Below, in pieces: positions 2,601-25,125 of a stretch of DNA of 32,000 bases. This DNA comes from Bradymonas sediminis (GTDB lineage: Bacteria; Myxococcota_A; Bradymonadia; Bradymonadales; Bradymonadaceae), in assembly GCF_003258315.1 (NCBI RefSeq), contig NZ_CP030032.1, forward strand, positions 2,177,804 through 2,209,803. The letters are read 5' to 3'. The translations under genes and the position numbers were made by a program. The notes under the pieces are model-generated. The model was not told where the DNA came from and made no database searches. It saw only the letters and a list, made by a program, of their open reading frames with translations. The first letter of the stretch is position 1. Each line of letters starts with the position of its first letter.

Positions 2601-4016
2601 ATGCGACGCGCTAAAATTGTTTGTACTCTAGGGCCTGCCTCAGATTCTCCGGAAGTCATCGCGCAACTGATCCACGCGGGCATGAACGTCGCGCGGCTCA
2701 ACTTCTCGCACGGAAGCCACGACTACCACCGCGCCCTCTATAAGCGCGTGCGCGACGTCGCCGAGGAGCTCAACAAGCCGGTGGCCATCATGCAGGACCT
2801 GCAGGGCCCGAAGATCCGCGTGGGCAAATTCAAAGACGGCCCGGTGCAGCTTATCGAGGGCAACGAGTTCGTCATCACCATCGACGATATCGAGGGCGAC
2901 CAGGAACGCGTCTCCACGACCTATAAGGAGCTGACGCGCGACATCGCCGTGGGGGACGTACTCCTGCTCGACGACGGCCTGATTCGCCTGGAGGCCATCG
3001 ACGTCACCGCCACCGACGTGCGCACGATCGTGCAGATCGGCGGCTTGCTCAAAAATAATAAGGGCATCAACCTGCCGACCGCGGCAGTGTCGGCGCCGAG
3101 CATGACCGAGAAGGACAAGATCGACCTGAAGCTGGGCCTGGAGCTCGGGGTCGATTATATCGCGCTGAGCTTCGTGCGCTCGGCGCTCGACATCCATCAG
3201 TTGCACGCGCTGATTCCGCCGCAAACCCACGACATCAAGATCATCTCTAAGATCGAAAAACCCCAGGCGATTCATGAGCTTGAGGACATCATCTCGGTCT
3301 CCGACGGCATCATGATCGCGCGTGGCGACCTGGGCGTTGAGCTGCCGCCGCAGAAGGTCCCGCTTATCCAGAAGCGCGCCATCCGCATGGCCAACGAGAT
3401 GGGACGCATCTCGATCACGGCCACCCAGATGCTTGAGTCGATGACCGAGAACGCGCGCCCCACCCGCGCCGAGGCCTCCGACGTCGCCAACGCGGTCCTG
3501 GACGGCACCGACGCGGTCATGCTCTCCGGCGAGACCGCCGCGGGCAAGTACCCGGTGGAGTCGGTGCGCATGATGGCCAGCATCGTCGAAGAGGTCGAGC
3601 ACGGCCGCGGCTCCCCGATTCATCACGGCCCGCAATTTATTCAACACCTGCGCACCTTCCCCAACGCGGTCGCCAAGGCGGCGAGCATCGCAGCCGATGA
3701 GCTCAACGTCAGCGCCATCGTGGTCTTCACCGAGTCCGGCGCCACCGCGCGCCTGATGATGACCTACCGCCCGACCAAGCCCATCGTCGCCTGCACGCCG
3801 AACGAGCGCGTCTACAACCAGTTGGCGATGTATTGGGGCGTTGAGGCCTACCAGATCGACCTGCTCCAAAATACCCAGGGTATCTTGAGCCGCGTCGAGA
3901 AGATGATGGTCGAGAAGCGCGGGGCGAAGTCCGGCGACGAGATCATCATCGTGATGGGGAATCCCGCCGGCGCCGGCTCGGAGACAAACCTCATCAAATT
4001 CCACCGCATCCCCTAA
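2601..4016 (+). CDS. pyk: pyruvate kinase
   Basis: MRRAKIVCTLGPAS…NVARLNFSHG…MQDLQGPKIRVG…IMIARGDLGVE…TQMLESM… are canonical PK motifs. ATG at 2601 matches the usual N-terminus (MRR-KIVCT-GP). Confidence 0.95.
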   Translation: MRRAKIVCTLGPASDSPEVIAQLIHAGMNVARLNFSHGSHDYHRALYKRVRDVAEELNKPVAIMQDLQGPKIRVGKFKDGPVQLIEGNEFVITIDDIEGDQERVSTTYKELTRDIAVGDVLLLDDGLIRLEAIDVTATDVRTIVQIGGLLKNNKGINLPTAAVSAPSMTEKDKIDLKLGLELGVDYIALSFVRSALDIHQLHALIPPQTHDIKIISKIEKPQAIHELEDIISVSDGIMIARGDLGVELPPQKVPLIQKRAIRMANEMGRISITATQMLESMTENARPTRAEASDVANAVLDGTDAVMLSGETAAGKYPVESVRMMASIVEEVEHGRGSPIHHGPQFIQHLRTFPNAVAKAASIAADELNVSAIVVFTESGATARLMMTYRPTKPIVACTPNERVYNQLAMYWGVEAYQIDLLQNTQGILSRVEKMMVEKRGAKSGDEIIIVMGNPAGAGSETNLIKFHRIP

Positions 4017-4059
4017 AGCAGCGCCCTCTGATGGAGCGCGCCCGCGCTCCAAACAAAAA

Positions 4060-4086
4060 CGCGCCGCCTCAATCTGAGGCGGCGCG
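4060..4086. terminator. bidirectional terminator hairpin between convergent pyk and the GGDEF gene
   Basis: CGCGCCGCCTCA (4060-4071), loop ATC, TGAGGCGGCGCG (4075-4086): a perfect 12-bp GC-rich stem. Flanked by an A-run upstream and GTCTCGTTT downstream. Confidence 0.6.
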
Positions 4087-4117
4087 GTCTCGTTTAAGCT
4101 TCAACCCATCAAGTCGA

Positions 4118-5086
4118 TTATTTGCCAACGACTCGGTTTCGCCCAAGCTCCTTGGCCTGGTAGAGCCGGTCATCGGCGAGCTTGATAAATGGGTGGGAGT
4201 TGATGACTTCTTGCTGAGTGTCGGTGTGGGACGCGCGCGATGACGACGCGAAAACCGACGGCGACATCGCCTTAAACGGCGGCATGATCGCCCGATACTC
4301 ATCGAGGTCGGCGACCCCGAGCGACAGGGTGACGTGAATCTCGGTATCGTCGAATTCAAAGGGCTCCGAGGCCACCGTGGCGCGCAACTTCTCGGCCAGG
4401 CGCGTCGCCTGGGCGCGGTCAACCTCGGGCAACAGCAGCACAAACTCCTCGCCGCCGTAGCGCGCGAAGACGTCGTCTCGCCGAATCTGACCGTTGATGC
4501 GCTGGGCGACCTTCTTCAAAATATGGTCGCCGGCCAGGTGGCCGTAGGTGTCGTTAATCGCCTTAAAGTGGTCCAGGTCGCACATGATCAGCGAGAGGCT
4601 GCGCTCGTAGCGGATCGAGCGACTCATCTCCTTCTCGATCGCCTGGAGAAAAAAGCGTTTATTGTAGATCTCGGTGAGCCCGTCGACCGTGGTCAGTCGA
4701 TAGATCTCGTCGTGATAAGACGCCTCGATATTGCTGCCGGTGAGAAACTTAAAGATCGTGCGGCCGATCTTAATCTGGTCGCCGTCGCGCAGCCGCTGGT
4801 CGGTCACCTCGACGTCGTTGACATAGGTTCCGTTGGTCGACGCCATATCCTTGAGCAGATAGTGGTCGCCGGAGTCATAGATCGTGGCATGGGAGCGCGA
4901 AATGGCGTCCTCATCGATCTGAATATCGCCTTTGCTCGAGCGCCCGATGACCGTGGTCGGCTGAGATAGCGAATATTTTTTGCCCAACTCAACGCCATTG
5001 ATAACCACCAAACAAGCTTCCTGCCCCGAGGAGTCCGGGGTGGGCAGCTTATTAATGACTGTAACAACTGTATTATCGTTGGCCAT
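4118..5086 (-). CDS. FHA domain-containing diguanylate cyclase (FHA-GGDEF)
   Basis: N-terminal FHA (TVIGRSS…DISRSHATI…DMASTNGTYVN). C-terminal GGDEF domain with an intact GGEEF site and an RxxD I-site (RRDD) 5 residues upstream. Ends …LYQAKELGRNRV. Confidence 0.9.
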   Translation of the reverse strand: MANDNTVVTVINKLPTPDSSGQEACLVVINGVELGKKYSLSQPTTVIGRSSKGDIQIDEDAISRSHATIYDSGDHYLLKDMASTNGTYVNDVEVTDQRLRDGDQIKIGRTIFKFLTGSNIEASYHDEIYRLTTVDGLTEIYNKRFFLQAIEKEMSRSIRYERSLSLIMCDLDHFKAINDTYGHLAGDHILKKVAQRINGQIRRDDVFARYGGEEFVLLLPEVDRAQATRLAEKLRATVASEPFEFDDTEIHVTLSLGVADLDEYRAIMPPFKAMSPSVFASSSRASHTDTQQEVINSHPFIKLADDRLYQAKELGRNRVVGK

Positions 5087-20337: not shown

Positions 20338-20698
20338 ATGGACCACGACACCTTCAAAATCGGCCCCGACATGCCCGTCCACCGCCTCGGCTTCGGCGCC
20401 ATGCGCATCACCGGCCCTGGCATCTAGGGCTGGCCCGCAGACCGAGACCGCGACAAAGCCCTCCAGCGACGCGCCGTCGAACTCGGCGTCAAGCTGATTG
20501 ACGCCGCCGAGCCTATAGCCCCGAAGTCAGCGAGTACCTGCTCTGCGACGCTCTCAAACCCTATAAAAATATCAACATCTCCACCAAGAACGGGCTCCTG
20601 CATGCAGGTGCCAACGACTGGTGCCCAAACGGCCCCACCCCAAACACCTCGAGATCGCCCTCAACGACTTGCTGCGACGCTTCGAGGTCGACCAAATC
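20338..20698 (+). pseudogene. aldo/keto reductase pseudogene (nonsense, at least 2 frameshifts, 3' truncation)
   Basis: MDHDTFKIGPDMPVHRLGFGAMRITGPGI then TAG (20425-20427) where AKRs have Trp. Homology continues in shifted frames (…RRAVELGVKLID…, …SPEVSEYLLCDALKPYKNINISTKNG…, …KHLEIALNDLLRRFEVDQI) and stops abruptly near 20698. Confidence 0.8.
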
Positions 20699-21150
20699 TC
20701 CCGAATCCGCTCGAGCAACTCGTCGAAATAGTCTTTGCCGAAGCGTTTGTTTAGCTTGAGACGCCCATCGTCCAGCAGAAAACCCTTGACGATAAACTCG
20801 CGCAAAGTGTTCGTGGCCCAGATGCGAAAATGGGTCGCCTGGGTGCTGTTGACGCGGTAGCCGACCGAGATAATCGCGTCGAGATTATAGTGTGAGATCT
20901 CGCGGGTCACCTCGCGGTTTCCCTCGGTTCAAAATATTCGAACATTTCGAATGGTTGCTTCTTCGATAAGTTCGCCGCTCTTATACACCTGTTTCAGGTG
21001 ATGATTAATTGTTTGCACTTCAACTCCAAAAAGCTCCGCCATCCTCCGCTGCGAAAGCCAAAAGCTCTCGTCTTCATGACGGACTTCGACCCGGACTTTG
21101 CCCTCGGGCGACTCATAGAAGATAAGTTCACTTTTATGGTGATCGGTCAT
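20695..21150 (-). pseudogene. RhuM-family protein pseudogene (in-frame TGA plus C-terminal truncation)
   Basis: Track ORFs 20929-21150 and 20572-20910 are one frame, interrupted only by TGA at 20929-20931: …EEATIRNVRIF*TEGNREVTREISHYNLDAIISVGYRVNSTQATHFRIWATNTLREFIVKGFLLDD…FGKDYFDELLERIREI. RhuM-like sequence ends at about 20695, where it abuts the AKR fragment. Confidence 0.85.
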
Positions 21151-21283
21151 TTTTTCGTGCCCTGTGAAAGTTGCTCAATCCAGACCTCAAAATGCCTGTC
21201 TAGAACTGGCCGATTTAACGGAACAGCTCAAGTTCGGTGAATTCCAACTCTATACAATAATCATGATAGCTCAAATAGTTGGC

Positions 21284-21751
21284 TCACTCCCCTCGCTCCT
21301 CTTTGGCACGCTGCTCTTCGCGATAGAATGCGCGCTCAGCAACGCCAACCTGCCACTCCCAAAACGGTAAAAAAACGTCCTCCTTCTCCTCTTTGAGTTG
21401 GTGCCGTGCTGATTCCATTGCCTCAATAATGACAACAGGAACCTCGCCAAGCGTACCGAACCAAGAACCCGTGCTACGATCTCTCAACGCATAATAAAAT
21501 GCGTCACACTCGTCCGATTCTGACTTCGAAGCCCACTCTAATGCTGGCCGTGCGATAGTTCGCCAAGCGGACGTGCCGATGGCAAAGCCGCTGCTTAGTC
21601 GAGCCAGTTGCAAAGCCGAATCCACCGATACTGCTTGACTGATCTGATATTTCAACTCGTTAGGTACTACTCGGCCGTGCGGATCAACATCCAGAAGAAA
21701 TCCCCCAAGAAAGTCGCGGCTATTACTGCCACTCGCGACGCAGTTCAGCAC
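21284..21751 (-). CDS. hypothetical protein (orphan, lower GC), possibly a fragment
   Basis: 155-aa ORF with no motif I recognise. Its first codons overlap the IS3 orfB remnant on the other strand. Confidence 0.35.
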   Translation of the reverse strand: MLNCVASGSNSRDFLGGFLLDVDPHGRVVPNELKYQISQAVSVDSALQLARLSSGFAIGTSAWRTIARPALEWASKSESDECDAFYYALRDRSTGSWFGTLGEVPVVIIEAMESARHQLKEEKEDVFLPFWEWQVGVAERAFYREEQRAKEERGE

Positions 21752-21900
21752 GCCATTTTGCGGTACTTAATGTGGTCCAATGCACATCACATTTACTCAT
21801 TCAATGACTATGTTTCTCCGATGCAGTTTGAGAGGTTCATATTGACGCGGGAAGCGGCAGCGTAAATGCTTCTATTTTAGTGTCCGAAAGACCGGGGGCA
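21731..21900 (+). mobile_element. IS3-family right-end remnant (C-terminal tail of orfB/integrase plus terminal IR)
   Basis: …TRDAVQHAILRYLMWSNAHHIYSFNDYVSPMQFERF… matches the conserved IS3 OrfB C-terminus pattern (TR…I..YI..YN..R.HS.LGY.SP..FE), stop at 21863-21865. The element ends …GTGTCCGAAAGACCGGGGGCA at 21900 (reverse complement TGCCCCCGGTCTTTCGGACAC), the TG…CA type terminus. Confidence 0.55.
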
Positions 21901-22861
21901 TGCCAGGTCGTCGAGACCGCGGGCGCCGCGCATTTTGTGAACTCTTATGGCGGCGACGCGCACCTGCTGCTCTATTCGAATCGCCGCGCCGACGCGGTCC
22001 TTTTGGACGCGCTCATCGCCACCGAGCCAAAGAGCGACCTCATCCCAAAAATCGTGAAGGGCTTGCAGACAAATCGCACCCGCGGGCGCTGGAATAATGC
22101 CCAGGAGAACGTCTTTATCCTGCTGGCGCTCGACCGCTATTTCGACACCTACGAGAAGCAGACGCCTAATTTTGTGGCCAATATCTGGCTCGGCGACGAC
22201 TTCGTCGGTGAACACGCATTTAAGGGCCGAAGCGCCGATTATCAAAACTCGAGCGTCCTGATGAAAGCGGTGGTCGACAAGACCGTGAAGGCCGCCGATA
22301 TCACCATTAAGAAAAACGGTGAGGGCCGCCTTTATTATCGCCTGGGCATGCGCTACGCGCTTAAATCACTCGCGCAGGAGGCCGCCGATTATGGCTTCGC
22401 GGTCGATCGAAAATACGAGGGCGTTGACAACCCGAAGGACGTCTTCCAGCGCGAAGACGGCACCTGGGAGGTCAAGCTCGGCAGCCGGGTACGTGTGCGC
22501 CTGACGATGGTCGCCCCGACGCGTCGCTATCATGTCGCCCTGGTCGATCCCCTGCCCGCCGGGCTCGAGCCGCTTAACCTCGCCCTGGCCACGACCGAAG
22601 CGGTGCCCGAAGATCCGCATGCGAGTACAGCGCCCACGCCCTATTGGTGGTGGTCGCGGCCCTGGTATTCGCACCAGAACCTTCGCGACGAGCGGGCCGA
22701 GGCGTTTAGCTCACTATTGGGCGCCGGCGTGCACGAGTTCACCTACACCACCCGGGCCACCACACCCGGTGAATTCGTGGTGCCGCCGACCAAGGCCGAG
22801 GAGATGTATAGCCCCGCAGACATTCGGACGAAGTGCGTCGACGAGGATGGTCGTGAAATAG
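21901..22861 (+). pseudogene. alpha-2-macroglobulin family protein, C-terminal ~320 codons only (5'-truncated at the IS end, +1 frameshift near the 3' end)
   Basis: …LLLYSNRRADAVLLDALIATEPKSDLIPKIVKGLQTNRTRGRWNNAQENVFILLALDRYF… and …GEFVVPPTKAEEMYSP are typical bacterial A2M C-terminal domains. The natural ending PQTFGRSASTRMVVK* (stop 22859-22861) lies in the +1 frame after a CCCC run at 22812-22815. Confidence 0.8.
22813..22857 (+). repeat. 45-bp direct repeat, left copy (A2M 3' end; att-like)
   Basis: CCCGCAGACATTCGGACGAAGTGCGTCGACGAGGATGGTCGTGAA is identical to 24035-24079. Confidence 0.95.
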
Positions 22862-22953
22862 GGAATGCCTGCCAACGGGGAGGCTAATTTTGCCTCTAAA
22901 GGGCAATCTAGCTTGACTCTAAGGCAGATGATTCTATAGTCCTAAGCAATATG

Positions 22954-22990
22954 ACCGACGCCTCTGCACATCTTTTGTGTACGCGTCGGT
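22954..22990 (-). terminator. possible terminator hairpin downstream of the Abi gene
   Basis: ACCGACGC (22954-22961) and GCGTCGGT (22983-22990) form an 8-bp stem with additional inner pairing, 20 nt after the abi stop. The U-tract is weak. Confidence 0.3.
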
Positions 22991-23010
22991 TCTCATTTGC
23001 CCACCTTATA

Positions 23011-23937
23011 TTACTGCCAGAGCGACCACGTTTCCCAGTTCTCAAAAGTACCCAGACCGTCTAAATCAAAGCGTTTTGGGAACTCCTCGTTTAGCAATCG
23101 CTGTAGCCGCTGACCCCACGAAGAGGTCGGACAGATGACTTTCAGCAATTGCTGCATAATACAGAAATAGAAAAATGGTCGCTCATGTCGCAGTGCTCTC
23201 GGCCAAGTTGGCGGGCTAGCTGAAAGTTCTGGAACATTGATATTCCATAGTCGACTGTGGTGAGCCGCCACGTTGCGTATAAAGTTCAAACTTCGCAGCC
23301 ATTGTGCAAAAGCCTGCCCATCCGGAGCGCCATAATTTTCAGCGATAATCTGTTTATCGTGATGCTGCATCCCGGCAAATAAGTGTGACAATAAGCCGAA
23401 ATCCCAAATTTCAATGGCGACCCAAATTGGGAGTGAACCGCCATATTCTTGGGCGTGATGCTCGATAAATGGTTGTTTTCGAGCGCGCTGGCGTGCCCTT
23501 TCATATTTAGACAACCATAACTCGTGTTTTGTTCGGCCGTTTCTCATTTTCTTTTTTGCGAAATTGCCATGCAGGTATTTGGGCAATTCATGCGCGCATG
23601 GGTCATATTTTCCAAGCAGATAGGCGACATCGACGCGCACAGCCATCTCGATACGTTCCAATGCATCAAGCGCCAAAAGTCGTAATTTTTTGTCGAAGAC
23701 ATATAAACGCGCCACATCCTCAAAACGGCTCCCCGGCATAAACTCATCTAGCCTCTGTCGGGCCTCAGAGTCTGATGCGTCGATGACGCGTAGTGGATAC
23801 CAATATCCACTTAAACGATAATAACCAATGCGCTGCAAATAATCCGTTGCAGCCGCCACATCCTCAACCAGCAAACCGCGTCCTTGCAATCGCTGCAATT
23901 GCTTTTCATATGAACGCCAAGGTTTGAGAGGTTTCAT
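23011..23937 (-). CDS. Abi_2 family (AbiD/AbiF-like) abortive-infection phage-resistance protein
   Basis: 308 aa. …YLQRIGYYRLSGYWYP…LYVFDKKLRLLALDALERIEMAVR…LPIWVAIEIWDFGLLSHLF…WLRSLNFIRNVAAHHSRLWN… is the characteristic Abi_2 motif series. Visibly lower GC than the flanks. Confidence 0.85.
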   Translation of the reverse strand: MKPLKPWRSYEKQLQRLQGRGLLVEDVAAATDYLQRIGYYRLSGYWYPLRVIDASDSEARQRLDEFMPGSRFEDVARLYVFDKKLRLLALDALERIEMAVRVDVAYLLGKYDPCAHELPKYLHGNFAKKKMRNGRTKHELWLSKYERARQRARKQPFIEHHAQEYGGSLPIWVAIEIWDFGLLSHLFAGMQHHDKQIIAENYGAPDGQAFAQWLRSLNFIRNVAAHHSRLWNINVPELSASPPTWPRALRHERPFFYFCIMQQLLKVICPTSSWGQRLQRLLNEEFPKRFDLDGLGTFENWETWSLWQ

Positions 23938-24034
23938 CGATTTTACTTGGTGAGGGTGTTGGCTCTAGCGAGTACAAATGATCCAGAACGAAAGACTAAA
24001 GCTTCCCGTCAAATTTGGCGAGCAATAGAAATAA

Positions 24035-24079
24035 CCCGCAGACATTCGGACGAAGTGCGTCGACGAGGATGGTCGTGAA
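24035..24079 (+). repeat. 45-bp direct repeat, right copy
   Basis: Identical to 22813-22857. It continues GTGA, so it also encodes …RMVVK* (AAG TGA here versus AAA TAG in the left copy). Confidence 0.95.
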
Positions 24080-24132
24080 GTGATAGATAGACCCGGTCTG
24101 TCATTGCAGTGATTCTATCGATTGAGCAGTTT

Positions 24133-25125
24133 ATGAAACGCGTACTTCTTTTGCACACCGGCGGTACCCTGGGCATGACCGGGCCGCCGCTTTTGCCCGA
24201 CGCCTACTCCGGCGTGCTCACCGAGGCCGTGCCCGAGCTGGAGAAGATCGCCCAGCTCGACACGCGCATCGTGCTAAACCTGGACTCCAGCGACCTGGGG
24301 CCGACGCATTGGACCCTTTTATGCGACGAAATCACGACGCATTATGATGATTATGACGGCTTCGTCATCGTCCATGGCACCGATACGATGGCGTATACCG
24401 CCGGCGCCCTGGCGTTCGCGCTCGTCGGCCTGGACAAACCTGTGATCCTGACCGGCGCGCAGCGCCCGCTGGCGTCGCTGCGCACCGACGCGCGGCGCAA
24501 TTTGGTCGACGCGGTGGAGATGGCAACGCGCGACGTCCCGGAGGTCGCGATTTGTTTTGACGGCCTGCTGCTGCGCGGTTGTTGCAGCACCAAGAGCAAC
24601 GCGCGCGACTACCGCGCGTTTGACAGCCCGGGCATCCCGGCGCTGGCCAAATTGGGCGTGGATATCGACCTCGGCGAGCATATTCGGCGTCCGCGGGTGC
24701 CGTTTGCGCCGGACGCGCGATTTGAGGAGCAAGTCCTGGCCATCAATATGACGCCGGGCTTTCAACCCCAGATGCTCGAGATGCTCCTGGGCATGCCCCA
24801 GCCTCCCCACGGCGTGATTATCGCCGGCTTTGGCTCCGGGACTGTGCCGCGCGAAAAGGGCTCGCTTGCGCCGGCGGTCAAACGCGCGACTGAGATGGGC
24901 ATCGAGGTGCTGGTCATCACCCAATGCTACGGCACCGTCGACCTGGATCTCTACCAAAACAGCCGCCAACTTGCCGAAGCCGGCGCAATCTCCGGCGGTC
25001 GAATGACGCTGGAGGCCGCCGTGCCGAAGTTAATGCACGCCCTCGCCCTCTACCCCGATCCGCACGCCCAACGCGAAGAGCGTTGCGCGTATTTGCAGCG
25101 AAATATTGCGGGTGAATTGGACTAA
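24133..25125 (+). CDS. ansA: L-asparaginase, type I
   Basis: MKRVLLLHTGGTLGM… (TGGT catalytic motif), …VIVHGTDTMAYTA…. ATG at 24133 is preferred over the track's GTG at 24109. Confidence 0.88.
   Translation: MKRVLLLHTGGTLGMTGPPLLPDAYSGVLTEAVPELEKIAQLDTRIVLNLDSSDLGPTHWTLLCDEITTHYDDYDGFVIVHGTDTMAYTAGALAFALVGLDKPVILTGAQRPLASLRTDARRNLVDAVEMATRDVPEVAICFDGLLLRGCCSTKSNARDYRAFDSPGIPALAKLGVDIDLGEHIRRPRVPFAPDARFEEQVLAINMTPGFQPQMLEMLLGMPQPPHGVIIAGFGSGTVPREKGSLAPAVKRATEMGIEVLVITQCYGTVDLDLYQNSRQLAEAGAISGGRMTLEAAVPKLMHALALYPDPHAQREERCAYLQRNIAGELD

Follow-up and report, generated by a model that had tools for sequence, protein, structure and literature searches.

How did a single abortive-infection gene come to stand between two perfect copies of a 45-bp sequence at the tail of an alpha-2-macroglobulin (A2M) paralogue, with no integrase or transposase next to it? 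The locus lies in a 32,000-nt stretch of the Bradymonas sediminis chromosome (NCBI RefSeq assembly GCF_003258315.1, contig NZ_CP030032.1, positions 2,177,804 to 2,209,803), which is called the window here and whose own coordinates are used below. A first-pass annotation made from the letters of the window had read the locus as a minimal mobile defence islet, bounded by repeats resembling the attachment (att) sites of an integrating element. Judged by comparing independent insertions of the same module, the repeat was shown to be host-derived and to differ from one insertion to another. It is probably a 45-bp host target that was duplicated when the module landed at the A2M tail, that is, a product of insertion with long target duplication (ILTD).

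The two copies of the repeat (Table 1) are identical over all 45 positions, none of 100 shuffles gave a match, and the 45-mer occurs only twice in the 5,045,683-bp genome even when up to 3 mismatches are allowed. The perfect direct repeats described before are thus confirmed by exact matching, by the shuffles and by the whole-genome count, and the search of the rest of the genome that the first-pass annotation had proposed returned only these two copies. The copies are spaced 1222 bp apart, with 1177 bp between them. The locus is identical in a second assembly (GCA_004362595.1), and in the Logan contigs from three runs zero mismatches were found at the locus; these contigs end at the repeat, as is expected for a 45-bp repeat at k=31. 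An assembly artefact, which had been named beforehand as a possible refutation, or a chance match is refuted by the two assemblies, the contigs of three independent runs and the shuffles, and retains next to no probability. At the junctions (22855-22861 and 24077-24083), the insert begins with ATAG after copy 1, and the native sequence after copy 2 reads GTGA.

Table 1. Features of the inserted module and its flanks, in coordinates of the window
Feature	Position	Strand	Details
IS3-family element, right-end remnant, ~180 bp	21727..21907	+	5' truncation of the A2M paralogue
A2M paralogue, 3' fragment, ~320 codons, bMG10 domain, pseudogene	21907..22861	+	Pfam bMG10 1.7e-36
Direct repeat, copy 1	22813..22857		continuous with the A2M fragment; the insert then begins with A + TAG
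Inserted module, 1177 bp	22858..24034		defined by composition and homology to the L042 contig
Sigma-70-like promoter (TTGACT, 16 nt, TATAGT), aimed at the abi 3' end	22913..22940	+	10/12 consensus positions
Hairpin followed by a T-tract, terminator-like	22953..22998	+	dG -24.3 kcal/mol, z -5.7
abi, Abi_2 / AbiD-AbiF type HEPN RNase gene, 308 aa, intact	23011..23937	-	sole protein gene in the insert
abi upstream region, probable promoter and 5' untranslated region	23938..24034	-	kept with L042 to ~24023
Direct repeat, copy 2, plus GTGA	24035..24083 (repeat 24035-24079)		displaced native tail (AAG TGA), continuous with the ansA upstream region; host-like GC resumes
ansA (asparaginase), flanking host gene, likely start ATG 24134	24109..25125	+	Pfam Asparaginase 1.6e-53

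The DNA between the copies has a GC content of 0.474, versus 0.611 for the genome, in agreement with the lower GC seen in the first reading. Its only open reading frame (ORF) is the predicted AbiD/F-like gene on the opposite strand, referred to here as abi. No recombinase or transposase ORF was found in the insert and its ends carry no inverted repeats, which bears out the reported absence of integrase, transposase and inverted repeats. The abi product matches Pfam Abi_2 at 5.9e-54 (183.6 bits, cut-off 25.6) and AbiD in PADLOC at 6.5e-61, and its full length aligns with PDB 8vz6, 'Abi family protein' (1e-33), where RNSCCHH is the counterpart of its HEPN R-x4-H motif RNVAAHH. By these similarities the product is an Abi_2 HEPN RNase toxin with a putative role in phage defence. 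At E<=1e-20, 3252 homologues of the protein were found, of which the closest one other than the protein itself has 76% identity, the rest having at most 69%. No close copies were found on plasmids or phages, where the best identities are 49% and 41%, respectively.

Most Abi_2 homologues with available context lie between hsdS (or a SIR2 gene) and hsdR, in hsdM-hsdS-(SIR2)-Abi_2-hsdR operons, and the abi gene stands solo in about twenty loci. By this comparison the insert, which consists of the abi leader, abi and a hairpin/promoter element, is a fragment of the accessory slot that a clade of type I restriction-modification (R-M) systems has between hsdS and hsdR. The idea of a single-gene defence islet at a gene tail, with no mobility gene of its own, has held up, the module being solo in many other genomes as well. 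A metagenome contig (L042) encodes a 76%-identical Abi in a different flank and is homologous to the window over 22912-24023, to about 10 bp from the right repeat; homology of this extent makes the suggested decay of a larger island unlikely. In L042 (1-215, 1345-1370) the insertion point lies inside an ansA homologue, 38 codons from the end of that gene, and no more than 2 bp are duplicated. The contig's ansA tail is ~77% identical to the window ansA, which suggests a Bradymonas-like organism with the module by ansA at a different site. The distance from the -35 box to the end of the insert is 54 nt in the window, 25 nt in Duganella rivi and 17 nt in L042, and a fixed module terminus was rejected because of this variation.

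The flanks of the module were surveyed at 39 loci for which both sides were available, with 195 mismatched pairs as controls. Flanking duplications of 31-110 nt were found at 5 of the 39 loci, while the longest match among the controls was 14 nt; survey repeats of 13-17 nt are at control level and were discarded. The five repeats are those of the window (45/45 identical), D. rivi (L075, 31/31), L085 (54 nt, 94%), L070 (66 nt, 91%) and L087 (110 nt, 95%), and they are mutually unrelated in sequence. In L085, L070 and L087, where the module lies within type I R-M operons, the imperfect repeats duplicate the 5' coding region of hsdR, and the L085 duplication begins exactly at the hsdR ATG. Across module insertions, the length of the duplication varied from 0 to 110 nt.

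For the D. rivi insertion the site could be seen without the module. The module is placed there (3548-4697) between 31-bp perfect repeats that are different from the window 45-mer, and 15 congeneric Duganella genomes (L105-L119) have an empty site in which the 31-bp sequence occurs once. In the closest of them (e.g. L108, L105 and L106), the end of a histone-deacetylase-family gene, ...GCGCT-T-TGA, runs directly into the sequence that follows the second repeat of D. rivi. The 31 bp are the 3' overlap of two convergent genes, with the stop of a beta-lactamase-family gene at one edge and the last histone-deacetylase-family codon at the other, so the duplication in D. rivi leaves both genes intact. 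The Duganella empty site and the host-specific repeats together indicate that the repeat is a duplicated host target rather than a site carried by the element.

In the window, the A2M tail itself was compared with its relatives. The first-pass annotation was right that the repeats duplicate an A2M 3' end, as the tail sequence shows, but the "gene" is only a 3' fragment cut by the end of an IS3-family insertion sequence (IS). A2M homology begins at ~21907, immediately past the IS3 remnant, and the fragment, which is 72-75% identical to full-length paralogues of 2101 and 2050 aa located downstream, is 5'-truncated and has a 1-nt frame lesion near 22812-22817. The ending shared by the two copies, ...TFGRSASTRMVVK and a stop (GTG AAA TAG versus GTG AAG TGA), is in the ancestral C-terminal frame, one base off the A2M ORF, and the frame that is open from the fragment continues to 22887. 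The earlier statement that both copies encode the same C-terminus with different codons thus stands for the ancestral frame, but this frame is shifted by one base from the ORF of the fragment. Other tails of the A2M family (14/14) end in ...EEMYxPETFGR..., from which the fragment tail deviates, and both repeat copies have GCAG where 14 of 14 of these tails have GAG. The simplest alignment would place a 1-nt insertion at ~22817, within the repeat, with no substitutions relative to paralogue 1; a slip in a C-run at 22812, just outside the repeat, combined with an extra E-to-Q change, could still account for the lesion. Since the slip reading competes, the common frameshift was dropped as proof of duplication in situ and only the shared derived GCAG was retained, which indicates that both repeat copies descend from one local sequence.

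ILTD of R-M genes is said to have been reported by Nobusato et al. in 2000. In the account of Furuta, Abe & Kobayashi (2010), ILTD of type I-IV R-M genes leaves unique repeats of 46-423 bp and involves no mobility genes; the repeats are single-copy at the empty site, some of them extend over the 3' ends of genes (46-bp cases in H. influenzae), and it was suggested that double-strand breakage takes part and that the repeats permit amplification (PMC2853133). The window locus resembles these cases in its short foreign insert (1177 bp, within the <20 kb limit), in its lack of a mobility gene and in a GC content unlike that of the host. Its repeat is longer than 30 bp and unique in the genome, with a length and sequence specific to the event (31-110 nt elsewhere), and the single copy at the empty site was seen for the D. 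rivi insertion, the window locus being without an empty-site genome. It differs in cargo: Furuta et al. call for R and M genes, whereas the window insert carries Abi_2 only, a gene from a type I R-M operon context. On these features the window locus is probably a case of ILTD, the phenomenon already documented for R-M genes.

Break repair is our preferred route for making the duplication, although we infer it with somewhat less than even confidence. Two chromosome ends sharing 45 nt, perhaps as a result of staggered nicks, of two sister copies or of a switch of replication template, would capture a linear fragment with the module between them, and the ends would then be filled in and joined illegitimately.

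Several observations weigh against target duplication and this way of producing it. Most solo loci of the module are without a long repeat, and L042 has a duplication of at most 2 bp, so a duplication is not the necessary outcome of a single mechanism. No empty site for the window locus was found in the collections searched, which include no close relative of the strain; the nearest relatives (G001 and G005) are too distant, with 73% protein identity in ansA and a different gene order. An orthologous A2M tail was sought with the degenerate pattern T-F-G-R-S-A-S-T-R-M-V-V-K, which had no match in the genome or metagenome contigs. No Ku was found in the genome, and classical end joining is therefore unavailable. 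In both perfect cases, moreover, the identity ends after the second base of the last sense codon, and the insert then adds a synonymous third base and a stop (A TAG in the window, A TAA in D. rivi), where the native copy has G TGA. Random target duplication does not predict such a boundary at the last codon. Selection for intact neighbours explains the boundaries in D. rivi only in part and fails for the window, because the A2M fragment is dead.

In view of the last-codon boundary, a small probability is kept for a more specific mechanism. This would be a dedicated, integrase-free insertion pathway for Abi_2 and similar small defence modules, which would land at ORF termini and duplicate a stretch that keeps both neighbours intact. 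Its junctions would prefer native ...N|GTGA, with the module end giving the wobble base and the stop, and its trigger would perhaps be chromosome breakage linked to R-M systems or toxins. Such a pathway is unlikely.

The first-pass annotation had called the repeats attL/attR-like. On an att reading, a site-specific element, with its integrase lost or acting in trans, would have targeted the A2M 3' end and brought a replacement end with it. This reading accounts for the Lys codon and stop that follow both copies with different codons, the lower-GC version being beside the insert; the geometry in D. rivi is the same, and at a second locus of this genome the 21 bp between a 98-bp repeat and the stop differ at two synonymous positions. 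Integrative elements are known to target the 3' ends of protein genes, as ICESt1 does in fda and e14 in icd. They share with the window the direct repeats at a gene 3' end and an end kept by insert-side sequence, and cis-mobilizable elements (CIMEs) also have no integrase. However, the att sites of CIMEs and of these 3'-end-targeting elements are element-specific, have a cognate integrase and recur in every host, whereas the window-type repeats are wholly different between hosts and equal to the local host sequence. For PF00589 the genome gave two tyrosine recombinases only, both of XerC/D size (320 and 322 aa), and for PF00239 no serine recombinase, which makes a resident trans-acting integrase, another option raised earlier, unlikely. 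Nor is there room for integrase remnants, since the sequence outside the conserved module amounts to no more than 55 bp on one flank and about 10 bp on the other; the tail pattern of the 45-mer had no match in the collections of genomes and metagenomes, and both copies carry the host-lineage GCAG. With no cognate recombinase, host-specific repeats, the Duganella empty sites and the shared GCAG all speaking against it, the att reading is improbable.

Homology could have acted instead. In a Campbell-type integration, which corresponds to the homology-driven capture mentioned in the first reading, a circle with the module and one 45-bp A2M tail would enter by a single homologous crossover. Exactly such a structure would result, its perfect repeats being host sequence; 45 bp exceeds the minimal pairing length of RecA, and the imperfect 54-110-nt duplications of the hsdR 5' region (L085, L070 and L087) look homologous and not freshly copied. 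It requires, however, a prior molecule in which the module was already joined to the host's own tail, including the lineage-specific GCAG, so the problem is only moved one step back, and neither such a circle nor a second copy is present in the genome. The Campbell crossover ranks next after break repair and is judged unlikely. We give as little credit as to the att sites to a two-step or one-sided homologous event, in which a donor with the module just past the A2M stop was joined at one side by homology within the A2M body and at the other by an illegitimate event, so that the recipient tail was left behind. Such an event accounts for the end of identity at the stop codon and for the different, AT-richer codons beside the insert, and L042 shows the module in a gene tail without duplication in what appears to be a Bradymonas-like organism; but the donor must match 45/45 bp and yet differ in 3 of the next 6 bases, and none was found in the collections. 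An IS or other DDE transposon was rejected on the lack of a transposase ORF and of inverted repeats at the ends and on the 45-bp duplication. An integron gene cassette was rejected as well: the integrases of the genome are the Xer-sized pair only and the flanks are host coding sequence, the hairpin not having been scored against an attC model.

Target duplication in the manner of ILTD thus remains the reading under which we consider the locus. ILTD is a route of horizontal insertion that has been documented without a mechanistic explanation and hitherto tied mainly to R-M genes. The window, the Duganella site and the 5 of 39 survey loci indicate that spread of the same kind occurs in a toxin module of the type I R-M accessory slot, which widens ILTD to single-gene defence islets. 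They also provide two well-defined junctions, at which identity stops at the last codon and the native copy continues with GTGA. By recombination between the two 45-bp copies, RecA could at a later time remove the islet or amplify it. For annotation, a long direct repeat at the tail of a gene is not in itself a sign of an att site.

The hairpin/promoter element on the 3' side of abi is a conserved part of the module. The arrangement of promoter and hairpin is kept in most of 58 distinct homologous loci, and the ~55-nt element directly 3' of abi is ~85% conserved, versus ~65% identity in abi coding DNA. Only on the strand antisense to abi do the variant positions of the hairpin form A-U, G-U or U-G pairs, although the support from covariation is weak, since the sample was chosen by sequence pattern. 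The element is a candidate for a convergent RNA of ~50 nt, predicted to come from 22941-22998 (+). A pattern derived from it matches 53 genome contigs, mostly of Beta- and Gammaproteobacteria, and an Abi_2 homologue stands beside it in 46 of the 53, mostly ending 11-70 nt ahead of the element. It was also found after Fic, SIR2_2, Schlafen/AlbA_2 and HsdS genes in R-M operons, upstream of hsdR. This weakens a role of the hairpin as an Abi-specific antitoxin, and the element is read instead as a boundary of the accessory slot upstream of hsdR. It may encode a small antisense RNA or mark the edge of an exchangeable accessory slot in type I R-M operons.

An Rfam search of 22850-24090 with E up to 10 returned two chance-level hits only, and no family was obtained for the hairpin or the abi leader; in the same interval, an upstream non-coding RNA (ncRNA) with the abiF motif (RF03085) was not detectable. 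In the AbiF-RCd22 system of C. difficile, the toxin is neutralised by an upstream ncRNA with abiF motifs (PMC12373285). The window system is similar in that the toxin belongs to the same family, has the HEPN R-x4-H motif and is associated with a structured RNA-like element. In AbiF-RCd22, however, the antitoxin RNA lies upstream on the same strand and has the abiF motif, whereas the window element is downstream and convergent, with no abiF motif detectable. The position of Abi_2 homologues between hsdS and hsdR is also that of prrC in the prr locus (hsdM-hsdS-prrC-hsdR), but the window abi stands alone outside an operon, and PrrC is an anticodon nuclease of another family.

A second insert between long direct repeats is present in the same genome at 673257-677813 (copies at 673257 and 677695), where the 3' end of a gene for a multihaem cytochrome c has been duplicated as a perfect direct repeat of 98 bp. 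The similarity extends a further 21 bp to the stop codon, the two synonymous differences being CTT/CTC. The 4.3 kb between these repeats (GC 0.54) holds an IS66-like transposase gene and a gene for a 632-aa secreted repeat protein, with no integrase. The genome still carries IS3 and IS66 copies. The IS3 remnant that truncates the A2M fragment matches the end of a complete orfA/orfB copy (4016606-4016786 of the genome) with 90% identity and a second copy with 80%. Three type I R-M loci were found in the genome, in one of which (~1.097-1.107 Mb) hsdS and hsdR stand 4 kb apart.

On the host side of the insert, a full A2M gene directly follows ansA in the relatives G001 and G005. The region from 12.4 to 24.1 kb of the window is an island between core genes that contains a Wadjet operon and gene debris. 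The debris upstream of the A2M fragment (20339-21766) consists of an aldo/keto reductase pseudogene, the two pieces (20572-20928 and 20929-21150) of a RhuM-family pseudogene, and an orphan ORF of 160 aa that starts inside the IS3 remnant.

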